Positions 4,085 through 63,585 of a DNA stretch of 64,000 nt are shown in pieces. The first letter of the stretch is position 1, and the number at the start of each line of letters is the position of its first letter. Below the pieces are notes generated by a model that saw only the letters and a list, made by a program, of their open reading frames with translations, was not told where the DNA came from and made no database searches. A program made the translations under genes and the position numbers. Location: IMG/VR virus record IMGVR_UViG_3300031994_000004. One strand, given 5' to 3'. Source of the stretch: a virus. Taxonomy: Duplodnaviria > Caudoviricetes.

Positions 4085-4142
4085 AATTTTACAAAACTTT
4101 ACTAAAAAACCCATTGACAAGCGCAGTGGGTTTTTCTATATT
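4076..4142 (+). promoter_or_regulatory. Early sigma70-type promoter with upstream palindromic box and embedded terminator hairpin
   Basis: GGTAAA-N6-TTTACA 4076-4093; TTGACA 4114-4119; 17-bp spacer; TATATT 4137-4142; hairpin arms 4105-4116 and 4124-4135. Confidence 0.85.
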
Positions 4143-4183: not shown

Positions 4184-4393
4184 ATGAAGAAGTTTAAGAT
4201 TACTGTAACTGCCGTTCGTGAATTCACGGTCCCGGATACTGCAACTGACGAACAGTATGACGAACTCAAGGCAGTCGCCATTATGGGTATGAATGAAGAA
4301 AAGATTACCCCGGACAAGGTCAAGGTTGAACTGATTGATGCTCCGGACGAAATCAAGCAGAAGTATATTATCAACAAGGACTGCCAGGACTAA
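4184..4393 (+). CDS. 69-aa protein heading the radical SAM operon (possible substrate or partner)
   Basis: Strong SD AAGGAG; first gene after the promoter; stop lies 1 nt before the first radical SAM start. Confidence 0.75.
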   Translation: MKKFKITVTAVREFTVPDTATDEQYDELKAVAIMGMNEEKITPDKVKVELIDAPDEIKQKYIINKDCQD

Positions 4394-4394
4394 A

Positions 4395-5069
4395 ATGAAG
4401 ACTGGAACACGCTTATACATTAACATTACAAATCGTTGTAATACAACTTGTCCGTTTTGTTGTATGTATTCTGGTGAATCCAAATCAACGGAAATGCCAT
4501 TTGAAACTTACAAGCAAATCATTGACGAGACCGATGGCGAATTTGAATTGCAGCTTGAAGGTGGCGAACCACTACTGAATAGAAACATTTATTTGTTCAT
4601 TGAGTATGCTATTAGCACACAGCGCTGTAAGAAGGTCATTGTTTTGTCTAACGGCATTGTTCTCAAGGACAACATTAAACGATTGGTAGAACTGCATAAG
4701 TGGTATAATGTTCCATTTGAGATTAAGGTTTCTGTAAATTATTGGTTGCTCAAGGTCAATAAGAACCATTTACAGAACATTGCTGACATTGTATTTGCGA
4801 CAAATTACATTCCTGGTTTTAGCATTTATTTGAACACTCGCAAGCGTAAAGACGATGCTTGGATTGACGAAGAAATTGCGAAGTACGGACTGTCCGAAAT
4901 CAACCATTCATTCTTCCTTCAAAGTTATGGAAAGATGACTGGAAACAAGAATTACGATGGTGTAACGATTGTACAGAACATTGAGAATTGGAAGGTTTAT
5001 TCTGTGGATGGCAAATGTTTCGGTACAGATTTAGTCGCAAGGTCGGAACACGAAAAGGGCATTAAGTAA
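4395..5069 (+). CDS. Radical SAM enzyme 1 (224 aa)
   Basis: CxxxCxxC (CNTTCPFC), GGEP and SNG motifs; ATG at 4395. Confidence 0.9.
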   Translation: MKTGTRLYINITNRCNTTCPFCCMYSGESKSTEMPFETYKQIIDETDGEFELQLEGGEPLLNRNIYLFIEYAISTQRCKKVIVLSNGIVLKDNIKRLVELHKWYNVPFEIKVSVNYWLLKVNKNHLQNIADIVFATNYIPGFSIYLNTRKRKDDAWIDEEIAKYGLSEINHSFFLQSYGKMTGNKNYDGVTIVQNIENWKVYSVDGKCFGTDLVARSEHEKGIK

Positions 5070-6007
5070 TGAACACAATTAAGTTCGCACCATACAATGA
5101 TTTTGTGACTGAGCAGCACGATGTAGAAAATGCGTCTGCTTACGAAGCAAATGTGTTTGGTTTCAATGGGAAGTTTTACAACCCGTGTAATTTAAATGTG
5201 TTCATTCAAAACAAGTGCCAAAACGATTGTGAGTTCTGTATAAACAAACGAAATGACAGGACTGACATTGACAATGAACTGTATTTCAAGAATTTAGAAG
5301 CAATTTTGGAAGGAATGAAAGCAGTTCATTTGGAAGCCACAATTACTGGTGGTGAACCAACATTAAATCCTACCCGAATGGTAGAAACGATTAGAATGCT
5401 GCGTAAGTTTGGTGTGAAAGAACGAACAGTTTCTACAACTGGTATAGGATTGATGAATTTGTATGAAAATAAGCCTGTTCTTCAGCATTTGATTGACAAT
5501 GATTATGTTCATAACATTTCCATCAGTAGAATGGATATAACTGATACAGAAAATGCGAATGTTTTGAAGGGTAAGAACATAACGAATGAAGAACTTGCTA
5601 GAATTGCGTTTTATGCCAAGGTCAATGGTGTTCAGTTGAGAACTTCCACGAACATTATTGAAAATCATATTGACAGTTTAGAAAAGATTTTGAATTTTGT
5701 TGATTTCCAGTACACGAACAACATAGATAGTTGCTTGTTTAGAGAAGTCATCGCAAAGGATTTCATTTCTATTGCTCCTTTCCAGGAACAAATTAGGAAT
5801 GACAAGAATTTTGTTTTTGATAAAGCAATTCACGGTATGTTTTATGACATTATCGTTTACATTTACAAGTCACCAGAAACAAATCAGGAATACATTGTAA
5901 AATGTTACCAAACTAATGTGATTGACAAAACTGTGATTGGAACTTTATCTTATAATCAAGGAAAACTTAGAACAGGATTTAACGGAGAGGTACTATATGG
6001 CAATTAA
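5069..6007 (+). CDS. Radical SAM enzyme 2 (312 aa)
   Basis: CQNDCEFC, ITGGEPTL; TAATG coupling to the previous gene. Confidence 0.9.
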   Translation: MNTIKFAPYNDFVTEQHDVENASAYEANVFGFNGKFYNPCNLNVFIQNKCQNDCEFCINKRNDRTDIDNELYFKNLEAILEGMKAVHLEATITGGEPTLNPTRMVETIRMLRKFGVKERTVSTTGIGLMNLYENKPVLQHLIDNDYVHNISISRMDITDTENANVLKGKNITNEELARIAFYAKVNGVQLRTSTNIIENHIDSLEKILNFVDFQYTNNIDSCLFREVIAKDFISIAPFQEQIRNDKNFVFDKAIHGMFYDIIVYIYKSPETNQEYIVKCYQTNVIDKTVIGTLSYNQGKLRTGFNGEVLYGN

Positions 6008-7055
6008 AGTCGGTGCTGACAGAGAAATCGGGTGGAATCCACAGTTGAGATTGGACCGCCAAAAGAACTATGACATTGGCAATTACGAAAGTACGCCTTT
6101 CACATTTGAGGCGGGTAATTACAATGTTTACAAGAACTTCAATTTCAGTATCTTTATGACTGACTATTGTAATGCGGACTGTAAGTTCTGTGTTGCTCAG
6201 TTGCGATATGCTAATAAGGGTCTGATGTATAAGAAGGACAAGCTTGACGATAAAGAATGGCTCAAGCGTTGCCGAGAAGTTCTTGAATTTATCCGTCCAT
6301 TGAATCCGAGCATTTCTATTACCGGTGGTGAACCAACACTCAGCAAGAACTTAATTCCAGTTCTTGAAATGGTGAAGGATTTGGATTTTAGAAAGCGAAC
6401 AATTACCACAAACGGTTCGCAACTGTTCAATAAGGTCGGAAACAAGATGATTATAGACCATCTGATTGACAATGGGTGGAATCATTTGAATGTTTCCCGT
6501 CCTGCAATTAACAATGAACAGTCCAAACAAATTATGCGTTTCAATAACGAGGAAGGTTTCTGTTCTAACGAAATGATGAAGGAAATCTTCCGAATTACGA
6601 ATGAATCTCCAATGAAGCACAGATTGTCTTGCTTGCTCTTGAAGGAATGTGTCAATTCTGTTCCGAAGATGAAGGAATACCTTGATACCTATTTGGATTT
6701 GGGTTGTAACAATTTCATTTTCCGAGAACTTATGGACTATGACAAGGACGCAATTAACTTTGAAAAGACTCAGTATTGCGTTGAGAACAAAGTAAGACTA
6801 AATGACATTTGGGCAGAGATTGACAAGTATCCTGAGTTTGAAAAGTACTTGAACATTCTCGGATATTACTACTATGTGGAAATCTACAAGTACAAGGGAG
6901 CCACAGTTGCTAGTGAATCTGCCAATATGGTTCAGCAGGGGATTGAAGTAGGCAAACATCAGGACCAGGTTTACGAAATGGTATTTCATCCAAACGGAAA
7001 CTTGTGTGCTTCGTGGGTTGATAGCGAAAGGATTTTGGATAGATATGTAAAGTAG
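5997..7055 (+). CDS. Radical SAM enzyme 3 (352 aa), paralog of enzyme 2
   Basis: CNADCKFC, ITGGEPTL, TTNG; SD GGAGAGG before ATG 5997; shares HLIDN, SR and FRE blocks with enzyme 2. Confidence 0.9.
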   Translation: MAIKVGADREIGWNPQLRLDRQKNYDIGNYESTPFTFEAGNYNVYKNFNFSIFMTDYCNADCKFCVAQLRYANKGLMYKKDKLDDKEWLKRCREVLEFIRPLNPSISITGGEPTLSKNLIPVLEMVKDLDFRKRTITTNGSQLFNKVGNKMIIDHLIDNGWNHLNVSRPAINNEQSKQIMRFNNEEGFCSNEMMKEIFRITNESPMKHRLSCLLLKECVNSVPKMKEYLDTYLDLGCNNFIFRELMDYDKDAINFEKTQYCVENKVRLNDIWAEIDKYPEFEKYLNILGYYYYVEIYKYKGATVASESANMVQQGIEVGKHQDQVYEMVFHPNGNLCASWVDSERILDRYVK

Positions 7056-8895: not shown

Positions 8896-9549
8896 ATGAA
8901 TTTTGTTTCTTCACATCCAGCATTTAACGATACGATAGATTCTTTAAAGAATGAATTTAAAGACGATAAATCTAATAATGTAATCATTTGCGGGGCTCAC
9001 GATTTTTCAAGAACACAGTCTATTGACTTTTATAAGAAAAAGTATGATAAAGTAATCGTGTTTAATCAAGAACCTTTGACAGCAACTCAAAGACAATTTA
9101 TGCACAAAGGTTATTTTGCTTGGTTGAAACAAGCAGATGAAGTCTGGGACTATGATGAACAGAATATAGAAGTTTTAAAGTTGATTAGACCAGATGTTAA
9201 GTTGCATATATTGAAACCATATAAAGACTGGAGTAAATATGCTCCAGTTGCGAAGGATATAGATATATTGTTCTATGGTTCAATGAATGAGCATAGAGCG
9301 AAGATACTGAATGAGTTGAAGAAAAAGTATAAAGTTGTGATACTTACTAATTGTTGGAATACAAATGAATTAGATGATTATATTTTAAGAAGCAAAATAC
9401 TATTAAATATCCATTATTATTATGAGAGTTCAATGCAGGAACAGGCTAGAATGATTAGATGGATAGGTAGTCCTTGTAGAATTATTAGTGAGAAGAGTTA
9501 TAAAAATTATTTAAATGTTGAAGAAATAGAAAATTGGAGTTTAGTATAA
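8896..9549 (+). CDS. Putative GT-B-fold glycosyltransferase-like protein
   Basis: KDIDILFYGS..R and SKILLNIH..E..R blocks typical of CgeB/GT1-like C-terminal domains. Confidence 0.6.
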   Translation: MNFVSSHPAFNDTIDSLKNEFKDDKSNNVIICGAHDFSRTQSIDFYKKKYDKVIVFNQEPLTATQRQFMHKGYFAWLKQADEVWDYDEQNIEVLKLIRPDVKLHILKPYKDWSKYAPVAKDIDILFYGSMNEHRAKILNELKKKYKVVILTNCWNTNELDDYILRSKILLNIHYYYESSMQEQARMIRWIGSPCRIISEKSYKNYLNVEEIENWSLV

Positions 9550-10170
9550 ATGCTTAATGATTTAGGAATAAAATATCATACAGATAAAGCATATAATCAT
9601 AAATTTTGTGATTTATATGAGAAAAATTTTAATAAAGAAATATCAAATCTATGGGAGATAGGTATATTAGATGGTGCTTCTTTACGTATGTGGAGTGAGT
9701 ATTTACCAAATGCTAATATAACAGGTTTTGATATAGAAGATAAAAGTTCATTATCTTTTAATAAAAATGTTAATGTTAAATTATTAGACCAGAGTAATAA
9801 AGAACAGTTAGAAAAATTATCAAATGAAAATAAAGATATTGACATTATAATTGATGATGGTTCACATATAATTGAACATCAGATTATGACATTTGAATTG
9901 TTGTTTAATTCTTTAAAATCTGGTGGACAATATATTATAGAAGATTTACATACATCTACAAATTTATGTAATTGTAATACATATAAGTTTTTTAATAATA
10001 AAGGAACTTTGCAGTATCTTAATGATATTCTTATTAATAATATACCTAAAGATTATCCTGGTCAATTAAATACATTAAATATAATAGATAAAATTAAGAA
10101 TATACAAATAATAGGAAATTTTGATACAAATGAAAAAAGAAGTTTAACATCTATTATTACACACATTTGA
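9550..10170 (+). CDS. Class I SAM-dependent methyltransferase (sugar O-methyltransferase-like)
   Basis: TDK, EIGILDGASLRMW, GFDI, DIIIDDGSH, GGQYIIEDL. Confidence 0.85.
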   Translation: MLNDLGIKYHTDKAYNHKFCDLYEKNFNKEISNLWEIGILDGASLRMWSEYLPNANITGFDIEDKSSLSFNKNVNVKLLDQSNKEQLEKLSNENKDIDIIIDDGSHIIEHQIMTFELLFNSLKSGGQYIIEDLHTSTNLCNCNTYKFFNNKGTLQYLNDILINNIPKDYPGQLNTLNIIDKIKNIQIIGNFDTNEKRSLTSIITHI

Positions 10171-10172
10171 TT

Positions 10173-10844
10173 ATGACATATTCTATAATACAAGTTGCTA
10201 CAAATAATTATGATAAAATATATGATTGCGTAGATGAAAATTCTACACATAATTTGTTATTTACAGACACAAAAATTGACGCTAAAAATTGGGAAAAAAT
10301 AAAAATAGAAAGTAATAAAAAATTTCCATTTGACACAGTATTTAATATAAGATGGAACCCATTTGAATTTACTGATACTGATTATGTAGTATGGGTTGAT
10401 GGTAGTATTAGAATAAATGGTACTGTGAAAAAATATATTGAACAAATGATTGCTGGTAATTATGATTTTGCTGTTTTAACACATTTTGCTAGAAATAATG
10501 TTTTTTCCGAATACTGTGAATGGTGTAATATAAGAAATTATAATAAAGAAAAAGCATTTTTATGGTTAAAACATTTTGAAGATAATGGGTTGGATATTAA
10601 AAATTCTGGTCTTTATCAGCCAGGTATAATGATTTTTAAAAATAATGTAATAATGCGAGATTTTTGTAATGATATGATTAAAGAATTACATTATCTTGAT
10701 AAAGACCATTATGAAAGATTAGACCAAACAATAATGACAATGCTGTTAAAAACCAAATATAAAAATATAAATTTACTTACTTTATCACATAAAACATATA
10801 TGACTAAAGAGCTAAGTTTTCACGGCAATCATCCAATGAAATAG
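10173..10844 (+). CDS. Glycosyltransferase-like protein (DUF616/TOD1-MUCI70-like)
   Basis: NYD...FTD, WVDGSI, HxxRNxxxxE, DQ motifs. Confidence 0.65.
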   Translation: MTYSIIQVATNNYDKIYDCVDENSTHNLLFTDTKIDAKNWEKIKIESNKKFPFDTVFNIRWNPFEFTDTDYVVWVDGSIRINGTVKKYIEQMIAGNYDFAVLTHFARNNVFSEYCEWCNIRNYNKEKAFLWLKHFEDNGLDIKNSGLYQPGIMIFKNNVIMRDFCNDMIKELHYLDKDHYERLDQTIMTMLLKTKYKNINLLTLSHKTYMTKELSFHGNHPMK

Positions 10845-50379: not shown

Positions 50380-51094
50380 ATGAATTGGTCAGATTGGCTT
50401 GACGATGTGTGGGTGGAATTTGTAAAATGCGAAGGTGGTGCAGTTACTATGGCCGACAAACCGATTTATTTTCCACCAAATGTTTACACAAATCCACAGG
50501 ATGATGATTTAGTAGGTCATCTATACGATTGGTATAATGCTGGTATGAGTTCAAAACTAGCTGCTGAACAGATGGGTTATATTGAGACTTAATTATGGGT
50601 ATTTTTAAACAACTATACAAAACATTTGTGTCTGACCCACAGAAAAAGCAGGAACTGTTAGATTGGTTAGTGGAACACGATACGCCTGAGTATCATAAGA
50701 ATCCGCTACCAGTTGGTTACGAAGCTAACAGATTGTTGTATGAAGAAATGGAATCTGTGGAAAGTTTGGAACAACAGAAGCAACAGATGCTGAATTATTA
50801 CACACGAAATAAACCTTTGGATTTGAACAAGAAGGAAGATAAGGACATTTATTTGCAAAGACGCTTGGAAAAAATCCAGGAGGATTTCTAATGTTTGTTG
50901 TTACATTTGCTGCTAAACCTGCAAAAGATTTTCCAACATTAGATGCTGCTGCCCAATTTATGACTACAGTTAGTTATGGATTTATACGCTGCACAGATCC
51001 AAATGGAGATGACTGCTCTATTGCCTTGTGCCAACTTATTGTAAAGAAACTTAAAAATAATAACAGATTAAATGATTTAAAAGAGGACTTCTAA
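50380..51094 (+). CDS. Hypothetical 50380-50592 and DF-tail proteins 50595-50891, 50891-51094
   Basis: DF members end KIQEDF and DLKEDF. Confidence 0.75.
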
Positions 51095-51615
51095 TGAAAG
51101 CAATTTACGCCGGTTCATTTAACCCACTTCACGCTGGACACATTGACATTCTTAAAAGGGCAATCAAGCTCTTTGGTGATGTTACTTTGGTATTAGCAGT
51201 TAACCCAGGAAAGACTTATATTTCGGCAGAAAGGCGTAAAGAAACTTACGAATGGCTTTTCAAAGAAATCGGACTGAATGTAAAGATTGAAATTCTCTCG
51301 GCATATAAGTTGCTCGCAGATTACTGCGATGAAAATGGTGTAACTCACATTGTTAAAGGTCTAAGGAACGGAACTGACCTTGATAGTGAAATGGCACAGG
51401 AATGGTACACGAAGGGACTTAACCCAAATGTAGAAACTGTGTATTTCACCACAAATAACACACATCGTTTTCTGTCTTCGTCCAGCATCAAGGCCTTTGC
51501 CAAAATGGATAAAGAAGGTTTCATTAACTATATGAAGAAAGTAAACAGTATTGAAGGAGCAAAAGCCACAGTTGTTGAAACATATCTTGACTGGGTGTGG
51601 AGGAATGTGCAGTGA
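51094..51615 (+). CDS. coaD: Phosphopantetheine adenylyltransferase-like nucleotidyltransferase
   Basis: YAGSFNPLHAGH (HxGH), AVNPGK, IVKGLRNGTD, ETVYF, LSSS. Confidence 0.75.
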   Translation: MKAIYAGSFNPLHAGHIDILKRAIKLFGDVTLVLAVNPGKTYISAERRKETYEWLFKEIGLNVKIEILSAYKLLADYCDENGVTHIVKGLRNGTDLDSEMAQEWYTKGLNPNVETVYFTTNNTHRFLSSSSIKAFAKMDKEGFINYMKKVNSIEGAKATVVETYLDWVWRNVQ

Positions 51616-61239: not shown

Positions 61240-62649
61240 ATGGCAAAGAACACAAAGAACACAAAGAAGACCACGAAGAAGACTGTTAAGACCACCGCAA
61301 AGAAGGCAGAAACCACAAAGAAGGTTCCACATCTTAAGGTTCACGATGGCGCTGACTTTTTCGCTCACAAGCACATCATCAATTTCTTAACTGAAACTGA
61401 CCTCTACAAATTCACCCAGCAGCAGTTCTATCTCCACGTTCGTCCGAATGACCGAGCAAAGTGGGAATTTAAGTGCCGCACTAAGGGTGTAAATCTCGCT
61501 CCGCTCTGTAAGCGAATTAACGAGGAATTGGATTGGTTGTGTACTTTGAAGTTCCAACAGTTTGAATTGGACTGGTTTAAGAAGCAGAATTATTTTGCTC
61601 ACGATTATGTTGAATTTTTGGAAGATTTCCAACTGAAGCGTCGCCACATCAAGTGCTATACTGACAAGAAGAATACTACTTTGTTCGTAGAAGCAGAAGG
61701 TTCTCAGAAGAATGTTTCTCCGTTTGAAATTTATGTTCTCCACATCATCCAGGCACTTTGGATGGCAGATGAAGAACTTGATTGGGATAGGGCAAAGACA
61801 AATCTTGACAACGAAATTGCCAAGGTGAACGCAGCAACCAGAGCTGGCATCAAGTTCACGATTTCCGATTTTTCTGTTCGCCGCACTATTTCTAGCGAAT
61901 GGGAAGATTACATGGTCGGTCGTATGCTTGCTATGTGCCCGGCATTTGTTGGAACTAGCAACGTCTATCTCGCCATCAAGCACAACTGCACGGCTATTGG
62001 CACCTTCGCTCACGAATTGGATGCCACCTATCAGGGCCTTTCGGATGTGACGATTGCGAATGCTCAGAAACAGAAGCTCACTGATTGGGCAAATGAATAT
62101 GACGGCAAGTTGGGCATCGCTCTCTCTGACAACTATGGTTTCAAGAGTTTCTTGAATGACTTTGGACTGAAGTTTGCGAAGCTCTTTGATGGTTGCCGTC
62201 ACGATAGCGGCGACCCGATTCGTTGGGGTGAAATGCTGATTGCTCACTATAAGAAGTTGGGCATTGACCCGACCACGAAGGTTGCTTGCTGGTCTGACTC
62301 GCTTGACATTGACAAGGCTCTCGCCATCGCAAAGCACTTCAATGGTCGCATCAAGATTGCGTTCGGCATCGGTACGTATCTCGGCGCAACTGTCTGTGGC
62401 ACAAAGAAGAATCCACTCTCTATGGTTATGAAGGTTGTGGAAGTGAATGGCAAGCCAGCTACTAAACTTAGCGACAGTAAGGGTAAAACTCTCTGTCAGG
62501 ACGAAGCATATAATGAATATGTGCGTAAGGTCCATAACTATAAATCTATTGATGACATGACAGTTGAAGAAATTACAGCAATGTTGCCTGATTTTAAGAA
62601 TGTTCTTTTAACTGATGTTTACAATGGAAATAATATAAATAATGTATAA
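61240..62649 (+). CDS. pncB: Nicotinate phosphoribosyltransferase with a Lys/Thr-rich N-terminal extension
   Basis: TDLYKFTQQQ, DF..RR, GTSNV, GTFAHE, RHDSGDP, SDSLD, FGIGT, KLSDS.GK. Confidence 0.9.
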   Translation: MAKNTKNTKKTTKKTVKTTAKKAETTKKVPHLKVHDGADFFAHKHIINFLTETDLYKFTQQQFYLHVRPNDRAKWEFKCRTKGVNLAPLCKRINEELDWLCTLKFQQFELDWFKKQNYFAHDYVEFLEDFQLKRRHIKCYTDKKNTTLFVEAEGSQKNVSPFEIYVLHIIQALWMADEELDWDRAKTNLDNEIAKVNAATRAGIKFTISDFSVRRTISSEWEDYMVGRMLAMCPAFVGTSNVYLAIKHNCTAIGTFAHELDATYQGLSDVTIANAQKQKLTDWANEYDGKLGIALSDNYGFKSFLNDFGLKFAKLFDGCRHDSGDPIRWGEMLIAHYKKLGIDPTTKVACWSDSLDIDKALAIAKHFNGRIKIAFGIGTYLGATVCGTKKNPLSMVMKVVEVNGKPATKLSDSKGKTLCQDEAYNEYVRKVHNYKSIDDMTVEEITAMLPDFKNVLLTDVYNGNNINNV

Positions 62650-62760: not shown

Positions 62761-63585
62761 ATGAAATTTTACATTTACAAAATAATAAACAAATTAAATG
62801 GTAAATGTTATGTAGGTAAACATAAAACATTTGATGGTGAAACTTTTCGTGCTTATATGGGAAGTGGTATTGCTCTTGTTGAAGCACAAAGAAAATACGG
62901 AATTTCTAATTTTGATAAAGAAATTATTGAAGAAATTGAAGATGATGAAAATGAACTTATTGTTAATGAACGTGAAAGATTTTGGATAAAAGAACTTAAT
63001 ACAATTTCACCTAATGGATATAATATAGCTTATTGTGGTGAAGGTGGTTGTTATCACGTATCGGAAGAAACAAAAAAGAAAATTTCAAAGTCAAGTTCAG
63101 GTAAGCCAAAAAGTAAAGAACATATTAAAAATATGCGAATCGCAGAATTTACAAAACAATATACTTTTGAATATGAAAATGGTAATGTAGAAGTTAAAAA
63201 TATAATTTTATGTGATTACTGTGAAGAAAATAAATTTGATTTAAATGAAATAAAATACTTATCATCTTTTGGCTATTATTATCATGGATTTCGTATAAAA
63301 GAATTTTATAATAAAAATGAATTTTTGAGAAAAATAGATAGAACTTGTAAATGTTTTAAAAACCCAATAACAAATGAATATGTATCATATTGGACTTTAA
63401 ACCAGTTAAAATTTCGTTATCATAAACCGGAATTAGAAAATGTAGAAATAATGGATTTATTGGATAAAACAAAGATGAAAATAAATCCTTGTAGATGGTG
63501 GAATAATGGAATTGAAGAACATTTCTGTATGAATAAACCAGATGAAACTTATAAGCCAGGAAGAATTCCATTTAAAAAACATTGA
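62761..63585 (+). mobile_element. Free-standing GIY-YIG homing endonuclease (Seg-like) with a NUMOD3-type repeat
   Basis: YIYKIINKLNGKCYVG, YMGSG, E..WI, PNGYN, HVSEETKKKISK..GKPKSKEH. Confidence 0.85.

Follow-up and report, generated by a model that had tools for sequence, protein, structure and literature searches.

We report here on an operon of a rumen jumbo phage that encodes three radical S-adenosylmethionine (SAM) enzymes, the relatives of which lie repeatedly among nicotinamide adenine dinucleotide (NAD) salvage genes in cellular genomes. The operon occupies positions 4184 to 7055 of a 64,000-nucleotide stretch of DNA (the window), which belongs to the 210-kb IMG/VR virus record IMGVR_UViG_3300031994_000004 (CheckV completeness estimate 56%). 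A small open reading frame (ORF) for a protein of 69 amino acids (aa) is followed there by the genes rSAM-A, rSAM-B and rSAM-C, whose products we call A, B and C. We propose, with a probability of roughly 0.5, that these enzymes form a mobile cassette which acts on a pyridine or ADP-ribose nucleotide and supports NAD supply during infection.

The A–C module and its genomic neighbours

C has 486 database homologues. Back-translation from its single sequence gave no genome loci and an alignment was required for the locus search; alignment-based pattern scans yielded 79 genome loci and 76 IMG/VR loci. Adjacent A and C genes were seen in over 100 of the loci fetched, which come from at least 10 phyla and from many phages. 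The bacterial carriers belong to the Bacillota, to metagenome-assembled genomes (MAGs) labelled Bacteroidota, and to the Patescibacteria/Dojkabacteria, Elusimicrobiota, Myxococcota (including complete Sorangium genomes), Planctomycetota, Cyanobacteriota/Melainabacteria and Pseudomonadota; DPANN archaea (Woesearchaeota/Nanoarchaeota) and IMG/VR phages carry the pair as well.

The architecture A–C was found in 55 loci, A–B–C in 20 or more, and A–C together with a protein of about 650 aa, the C-terminal half of which is B/C-like, in nine. C stands alone in 30 loci, 18 of which are distant matches of 23–26% identity (L147–L164), and B is present in about a third of the loci. Because these architectures recur across loci, the A+C pair is the conserved unit, with B as an accessory duplicate of C. 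The copies in the window retain all invariant columns of the alignments (A2 for A, A1 for C), to whose members A is 29–66% and C 54–84% identical, and a quick tree places C in a clade with rumen and gut Bacillota and phage copies (Shimodaira–Hasegawa-like approximate likelihood-ratio test, SH-aLRT, 99). By these comparisons, the trio is in all probability the phage copy of a widespread, unnamed and horizontally mobile radical SAM module.

Some loci show the module in other forms or surroundings. The C-type enzyme of one IMG/VR phage (L112, 9977-12028) continues into a PD-(D/E)XK nuclease domain within one 683-aa ORF, which may be a true fusion or the result of a lost stop codon. In Lachnospiraceae (L009, 3209-9025; L010), A, C and the 650-aa C-like protein share one operon with a SulP–STAS anion transporter, whose stop overlaps the start of A, a hint at an imported substrate. 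Distant A/C pairs of 33–38% identity from Myxococcota, Planctomycetota, Acidobacteriota and Melainabacteria (L051, L061, L063, L064, L068, L070) follow a conserved MoxR-type AAA+ ATPase and four proteins without a Pfam match.

The most telling neighbours of the module are genes of NAD metabolism, which were already present in the first three contexts inspected. We dereplicated the loci at 85% identity of C, leaving 61 (44 cellular, 17 viral), and annotated the recurrent clusters of neighbours by Pfam. At least one NAD or ADP-ribose gene lies within 9 kb in 11 of the 44 cellular and 2 of the 17 viral loci (13/61 in total), and three further loci have a NadR-like kinase as the sole such gene. 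Nearly all of these NAD genes (46 of 48) are on the same strand as C. By Pfam, the neighbours comprise NrtR, NadD-like proteins, nicotinate phosphoribosyltransferase (NAPRTase), NAD synthase, isochorismatase, NAD kinase and CinA/PncC, furthermore ADP-ribosylglycohydrolase (ARH), phosphoribosyl pyrophosphate synthetase (Prs), Nudix, Macro and NADAR proteins, and finally Nampt-like proteins, glutamine-dependent NadE and NadR-like AAA_28 kinases.

Individual loci illustrate how closely the module is integrated. One locus (L013) has the order A-B-C-PncA-PncB-Nudix-NadE-NadD-NadK-NrtR, and in another (L023) the trio and a small P-loop kinase lie mid-way in a 14-gene NAD operon. Two large phages belong to the same picture: a 425-kb contig (L006) encodes a NAPRTase, the trio, an AAA_33 kinase and nucleoside deoxyribosyltransferase-like, isochorismatase and cytidylyltransferase-like proteins, and a second large phage contig (L141) has the order PncB-A-C-rSAM-NadE-...-NadD-NrtR. 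In a Ruminococcus MAG (L007), the module lies beside pncB, pncA, NrtR and a gene for a HemN-like radical SAM–Nudix fusion. This 636-aa fusion protein (8927-10837) is encoded in the NrtR-PncA-PncB operon, convergent with the A/C module, and represents a second, unrelated radical SAM family linked to NAD salvage.

Since NAD contexts turn up in eight phyla and in no fewer than six clades of the tree of C, they do not stem from a single ancestral arrangement. A second partner that returns repeatedly is a P-loop kinase (CoaE/AAA_33/AAA_18/AAA_28) encoded immediately behind C, as is also seen in the related phage L090. Measured against NrtR-regulated NAD salvage operons, A/C is co-linear with nrtR, pncA, pncB, nadD, nadE, nadK, prs and Nudix genes in the 11 of 44 cellular loci. 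The founding description of the NrtR regulon mentions no radical SAM enzyme and has 0 occurrences of the word 'radical' (Rodionov et al. 2008, PMC2330246). A search of the literature on radical SAM enzymes with NrtR, NAD biosynthesis or salvage, nicotinate or phage found no paper on such a module.

Family placement and predicted folds of A, B and C

A (4395..5069, plus strand; 224 aa), B (5069..6007, plus strand; 312 aa) and C (5997..7055, plus strand; 352 aa) are members of the radical SAM superfamily. All three contain CxxxCxxC and GGEP motifs (CNTTCPFC in A, CNADCKFC in C), which are invariant in the alignments of A and C, and they match only PF04055 and PF13353, the PF04055 scores exceeding the gathering cut-off for each. 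B and C are paralogues, as had been predicted from the sequence (25% identity over 222 residues, E 4e-24), and A is related to them through the cluster-binding core alone. In the alignment of C, the motifs CNADCxFC, GGEP and GYYYYVEIYK are invariant, as are numerous Arg and Lys residues; the C-terminal part of the enzyme is a distinct conserved beta domain (GYYYYVEIYKY). Three dispersed cysteines of C outside CxxxCxxC (C189, C212 and C261) are invariant or nearly so across 27 homologues and could be hydrogen-atom donors or ligands of an unrecognised auxiliary cluster; B has no equivalent of C212.

None of the three enzymes reaches any curated NCBIfam cut-off, and they thus lie outside the well-characterised families; membership in one of these had been named beforehand as a refutation of the original prediction. 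All NCBIfam matches of A, B and C are confined to the N-terminal core and fall far below these cut-offs. A scores 35.6 bits against the His-Xaa-Ser family models (HxsB/HxsC/HxsC4 group; cut-off 268) and B 36.5 bits against HxsC4 (cut-off 500); a His-Xaa-Ser system was rejected on these scores and because no ORF with HXS repeats (HxsA) is present. For C, the MoaA model TIGR02666 gives 55.1 bits (cut-off 284, E 5.6e-15), the viperin model NF038283 gives 53.9 bits (cut-off 180, E 1.4e-14) and QueE gives 24.9 bits (cut-off 260). Beyond the scores, MoaA membership is contradicted by the lack of a conserved, clustered C-terminal three-Cys motif, membership in viperin and prokaryotic viperins (pVips) by PADLOC matches to pVip that are partial, and QueE membership by the lack of a FolE, QueC, QueD or DpdA gene nearby.

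Other searches place the enzymes no more narrowly. The best PADLOC matches are the partial ones to pVip models (E 2e-15 to 2e-8), PHROGs returned generic 'radical SAM domain' families only, and a profile search of Protein Data Bank (PDB) sequences returned only weak N-terminal matches. Pfam matches to SPASM (PF13186) and to PqqD-like domains (PF05402), the marker of a recognition element (RRE) of ribosomally synthesized and post-translationally modified peptides (RiPPs), are lacking in A, B and C, as are twitch matches, and the SPASM-family matches in NCBIfam, like the others, span the N-terminal core alone at scores far under their cut-offs. The phage has a fourth radical SAM gene elsewhere (320 aa, G000:C1:64270-64578; L005 1003-1962, minus strand). 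We rejected it as a member of the module, since it has only the N-terminal core in common with C (hhalign probability 88%).

We compared AlphaFold models with solved structures using Foldseek and VIA-wide. Both A and C were modelled as barrels, with mean confidence (predicted local distance difference test, pLDDT) of 95.9 and 91.4, and A would be a bare, minimal radical SAM barrel. The nearest solved structure to A is EpeE (Z 18.0, root-mean-square deviation, rmsd, 3.1 over 207 residues), and SkfB, BlsE and viperin are also among the nearest. For C, the nearest solved folds are GDGT-MAS (Z 20.5), MoaA (Z 20.0; Foldseek E 4e-12, TMq 0.58; VIA rmsd 3.9 over 277 residues) and viperin (Z 18.2). 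According to the models, both enzymes sit in the MoaA/viperin/SPASM-core fold neighbourhood, a placement that does not separate nucleotide from peptide substrates.

By profile and fold, the closest characterised enzyme to C is MoaA (GTP 3',8-cyclase; PDB 1TV7, 2FB2). Both have an N-terminal CxxxCxxC and a GGEP motif, and MoaA acts on the ribose of a nucleoside triphosphate. Unlike MoaA, C has neither the conserved C-terminal three-Cys auxiliary cluster motif nor a GG tail, its C-terminal beta domain is distinct, and there are no MoaC or other molybdenum cofactor genes near it. The profile and fold likeness of C to viperin and pVip is comparable, and the nucleotide kinase neighbour of the kinase-associated pVips recurs in the A/C module. 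The radical dehydration of a nucleotide ribose by viperin may serve as a plausible model for the chemistry of the module, which differs from viperin and pVip in having two or three enzymes instead of one and in lying in NAD salvage operons instead of defence islands. Taken as an analogy, the likeness to MoaA and viperin together with the kinase partner suggests a nucleotide or nucleoside substrate and abstraction of a hydrogen atom from its ribose.

The phage operon, its 69-aa protein and the phage's own NAD genes

The small ORF (4184..4393, plus strand) encodes an acidic protein that ends in NKDCQD and has a single Cys and no repeats; it matches nothing in Pfam, NCBIfam or PHROG. It has 82 homologues of 55–97% identity, all of them metagenomic and several on contigs of about 420 kb, and it is a genuine gene, conserved in related rumen jumbo phages. 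Its association with the radical SAM genes is confined to the immediate lineage: two immediate relatives (L179, L180; 94% identity) again have the small ORF followed by the trio. In four remoter lineages (62–79% identity), the homologue stands first in arrays of small early genes, and the adjoining 5–6 kb contain no radical SAM gene; below about 80% identity, its neighbours are such other small early genes. Conversely, a blastp search (E up to 0.01) of about 160 A/C loci found the small ORF in none of them. In L090, the nearest relative sampled that has a trio but stands beyond the immediate lineage (its C is about 80% identical), the position upstream of A is taken by a 76-aa ORF that is rich in Ala and Lys and unrelated.

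These distributions indicate that the small protein is lineage-specific and stands outside the radical SAM module. One of the lineages without radical SAM neighbours (L177) also shares with the window the gene upstream of the small ORF, and the trio is therefore best read as an insertion behind the small ORF. In one of the 94%-identical relatives (L179, 6380-6955), A was called as a protein of 191 aa after a 100-nt gap, which may reflect a 5' lesion or an alternative start; the sister contig L180 has an intact A of 224 aa.

Within the operon, the original prediction of three tightly coupled CxxxCxxC/GGEP enzymes behind an ORF ending in NKDCQD was borne out, with corrected starts. The program-listed TTG starts at 4335 (A) and 5937 (C) are upstream extensions, since homologues start at ATG 4395 and 5997. 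One base separates the stop of the small ORF from the ATG at 4395 (TAA-A-ATG), stop and start of A and B overlap at 5069 (TAATG), and B and C overlap by 11 nt, with the Shine-Dalgarno sequence GGAGAGG. The four genes are translationally coupled. Transporter and protease genes are absent from the roughly 2 kb of DNA that flank the operon on each side, and the reported lack of such neighbours, of a SPASM/twitch cluster and of an obvious RRE was likewise confirmed; the description of the sequence was right in all points that could be checked. In-frame CGG codons do not occur in the small ORF, A, B or C, and a megablast search of the region against GenBank phages gave no match.

The single early promoter that had been proposed for the operon is plausible. 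A sigma-70-like site, TTGACA-17-TATATT, at 4114..4142 (plus strand) has 11/12 consensus matches, a strong likeness; across the region as a whole, however, sites of this kind are no more numerous than in shuffled sequences. The -35 hexamer of this site lies within a terminator-like 12-bp hairpin followed by a T run (4105-4135), and a single element may thus terminate the upstream operon and start the radical SAM operon. A late-promoter-like CATAAATA is found 3' of C, ahead of the next gene. Upstream of the operon, at 2413-2802 of the window, a 129-aa ORF without a Pfam match has a conserved-looking FVFGSN...G.H.GGAA...SYALPT pattern.

The phage has predicted NAD genes of its own, at a distance from the operon. 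A PncB-type NAPRTase of 469 aa (61240..62649, plus strand; PF04095 3.9e-61, PF17767 1.2e-22) is encoded 54 kb away, and a 173-aa cytidylyltransferase-like protein, predicted to resemble NadD and nicotinamide mononucleotide adenylyltransferase (NMNAT), lies at 51094..51615 (plus strand; PF01467 4.2e-13). Outside the window, Pfam-level matches point to a 370-aa NMNAT–Nudix fusion and a 155-aa Nudix protein (G000:C1:110391-111428 and 112708-113043). The NAPRTase and the 173-aa protein possibly belong to the same pathway as the trio; among 20 other viral records with A/C, 7 encode a NAPRTase-family protein. As a kit for the NAD pathway, the genes of this phage recall NadV/NatV of large T4-like phages. 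The NAPRTase gene is followed closely by one (62761-63585) for a 274-aa protein with a GIY-YIG domain, which is probably a homing endonuclease.

Phage pathways for the reconstitution of NAD offer a further comparison. As described, the NAD+ reconstitution pathways NARP1–3 restore NAD during infection: NARP1 recycles ADP-ribose with Adps and Namat, NARP2 converts nicotinamide to nicotinamide mononucleotide (NMN), which is then ligated to NAD+, and NARP3 combines a PnuC-like transporter with a NadR-like enzyme (bioRxiv 10.1101/2024.02.11.579819; PMC13464706). The NARP papers covered by the literature search do not mention 'radical SAM'. The phage studied here likewise has NAPRTase-family and adenylyltransferase-like proteins, which are assigned at Pfam level only, and A, B and C have no counterpart in the NARP pathways. 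The NARP2 enzymes are reportedly Nampt and NMNAT.

Candidate functions and their consequences

We suggest that the operon combines two unrelated parts, a lineage-specific early protein of 69 aa and a horizontally mobile trio that would have been inserted behind it. The conserved core of the trio is the small enzyme A and the MoaA/viperin-like C, with B as a duplicate of C. In cells, this core is found repeatedly as part of operons for NAD(P) salvage and ADP-ribose recycling under NrtR, often with a P-loop kinase directly after C. A, B and C might then act one after the other, by radical chemistry, on a pyridine or ADP-ribose nucleotide or nucleoside, and the 5'-deoxyadenosyl radical would abstract a hydrogen atom, most likely from the ribose. 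Early expression in the phage could maintain or remodel the host cell's NAD pool during infection, together with the phage NAPRTase and adenylyltransferases. The more specific claim, that A/C (with or without B) catalyses an undescribed radical transformation of NAD, of a pyridine mononucleotide or nucleoside, or of an ADP-ribose derivative, is tentative, and we put it at slightly less than even odds.

Several observations weigh against this proposal. About 70% of the dereplicated loci, the window included, have no NAD gene within 9 kb; the NAPRTase and adenylyltransferase-like genes of the phage are 44–54 kb from the trio, with none nearby, and a group of gut phages of about 150 kb has A–C and no NAD gene in the record. 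SulP–STAS transporter operons and MoxR AAA+ clusters recur as other contexts of the module. The calculated enrichment, a binomial tail of about 3e-10, applies to at least 13 of 44 loci against a 3% background; the actual cellular count is 11/44, and the 3% is an assumption. ORFs in the loci were called and clustered by simple scripts of our own. The fold likeness to MoaA and viperin is also common to the peptide-modifying enzymes SuiB, SkfB and EpeE. Among 38 carrier genomes, moreover, NadA is present in 18, NadC in 17 of these 18, and the Carb_kinase domain (NAD(P)HX dehydratase) in 25. None of the three and the module exclude each other, and we therefore dropped the ideas that the module simply stands in for de novo synthesis from aspartate, serves as a quinolinate decarboxylase in place of NadC, or takes over NAD(P)HX repair from Nnr. 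A separate profile search with PF04095 overlooked copies of PncB that Pfam annotation detects beside the module, and the absences in its table are unreliable.

The original prediction had offered two readings of the operon, a peptide or protein modification system and a multi-step nucleotide or base modification pathway. In the first, the 69-aa ORF would be a RiPP precursor modified by A, B and C. Radical SAM genes coupled in translation to a short ORF in front of them are indeed a layout that RiPP systems share, the solved structures closest to A are those of RiPP maturases (EpeE/YydG, SkfB, SuiB), which also rank high among the matches of C, and the 94%-identical relatives retain the small ORF together with the trio. 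The enzymes differ from these maturases in that no SPASM/twitch domain or RRE was found by Pfam or NCBIfam, there is no adjoining protease or exporter, and the peptide has one Cys and no repeats. Of the two-part refutation set beforehand for this model, the co-occurrence half came out against it: trios and pairs of A/C genes exist without the small ORF, as in L090 with its unrelated 76-aa ORF. Beyond that condition, the small ORF in turn exists without radical SAM genes. The RiPP reading thus fails on co-occurrence, and modification of the 69-aa protein by the trio is very improbable. A nucleotide pathway fits better because of the MoaA/viperin likeness and the P-loop kinases that recur beside the genes, and this half of the second reading is favoured, although not as a modification of bases in virion DNA, since the comparison points to NAD and ADP-ribose. 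Hypermodification of phage DNA or nucleobases, on the model of 7-deazaguanine pathways with their QueE or of thymidine hypermodification with its radical SAM isomerase, would suit a large, T4-like phage and a predicted early operon. With cellular copies in NAD operons, a QueE score of 24.9 against 260 bits and, both here and in related loci, no adjoining gene for DpdA/Tgt, FolE/QueC/QueD, a hydroxymethylase or an aGPT-Pplase, it is highly unlikely.

Two further possibilities stay closer to the nucleotide reading. The module could convert a metabolite without a pyridine ring into nicotinate, or into an immediate precursor of it, and so supply PncB, which would be a special case of a role in NAD metabolism. 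It adjoins PncA, PncB, NadD and NadE in small-genome Bacilli, Dojkabacteria and Erysipelotrichaceae, and all small-genome carriers with the trio inside a NAD operon (11/11) lack NadA. Ring-forming systems of two radical SAM enzymes are known in CofG/CofH. Small-genome lineages, however, probably lack NadA irrespective of the module, half of the carriers have NadA and almost all of those NadC too, and the handling of nucleotides and ADP-ribose is what the partners (kinase, ARH, Macro and NADAR) suggest instead, so that we regard this synthesis of a pyridine as unlikely. We judge it equally unlikely that the enzymes convert a nucleotide into a viperin-like antimetabolite, for example a 3'-deoxy-3',4'-didehydro (ddh) nucleotide, for host shut-off, competition between phages or bacterial defence. 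The pVip models among the PADLOC matches, MoaA and viperin as the best NCBIfam matches of C, the association with kinases as in kinase-linked pVips and the predicted early operon speak for it. The score of C is far below the viperin cut-off, however, and the module is carried by viruses and hosts alike and, in reduced genomes, forms part of housekeeping NAD operons and not of defence islands.

NAD salvage is viewed as a closed and well-mapped pathway, and the depletion and reconstitution of NAD are a current focus of research on the conflict between phages and bacteria. A radical SAM pair in NAD operons of many phyla, and in many large phages, would imply an undescribed chemistry on NAD or its fragments. 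The phage copy offers this chemistry as a compact cassette of three genes that can be expressed and assayed, and our analysis removes a tempting RiPP annotation from it. If a role in NAD metabolism is correct, the module would represent a new branch of this metabolism that bacteria and archaea with reduced genomes, gut Firmicutes and large phages have in common. In the phages, it would add a further NAD-directed auxiliary or counter-defence pathway to NARP1–3.

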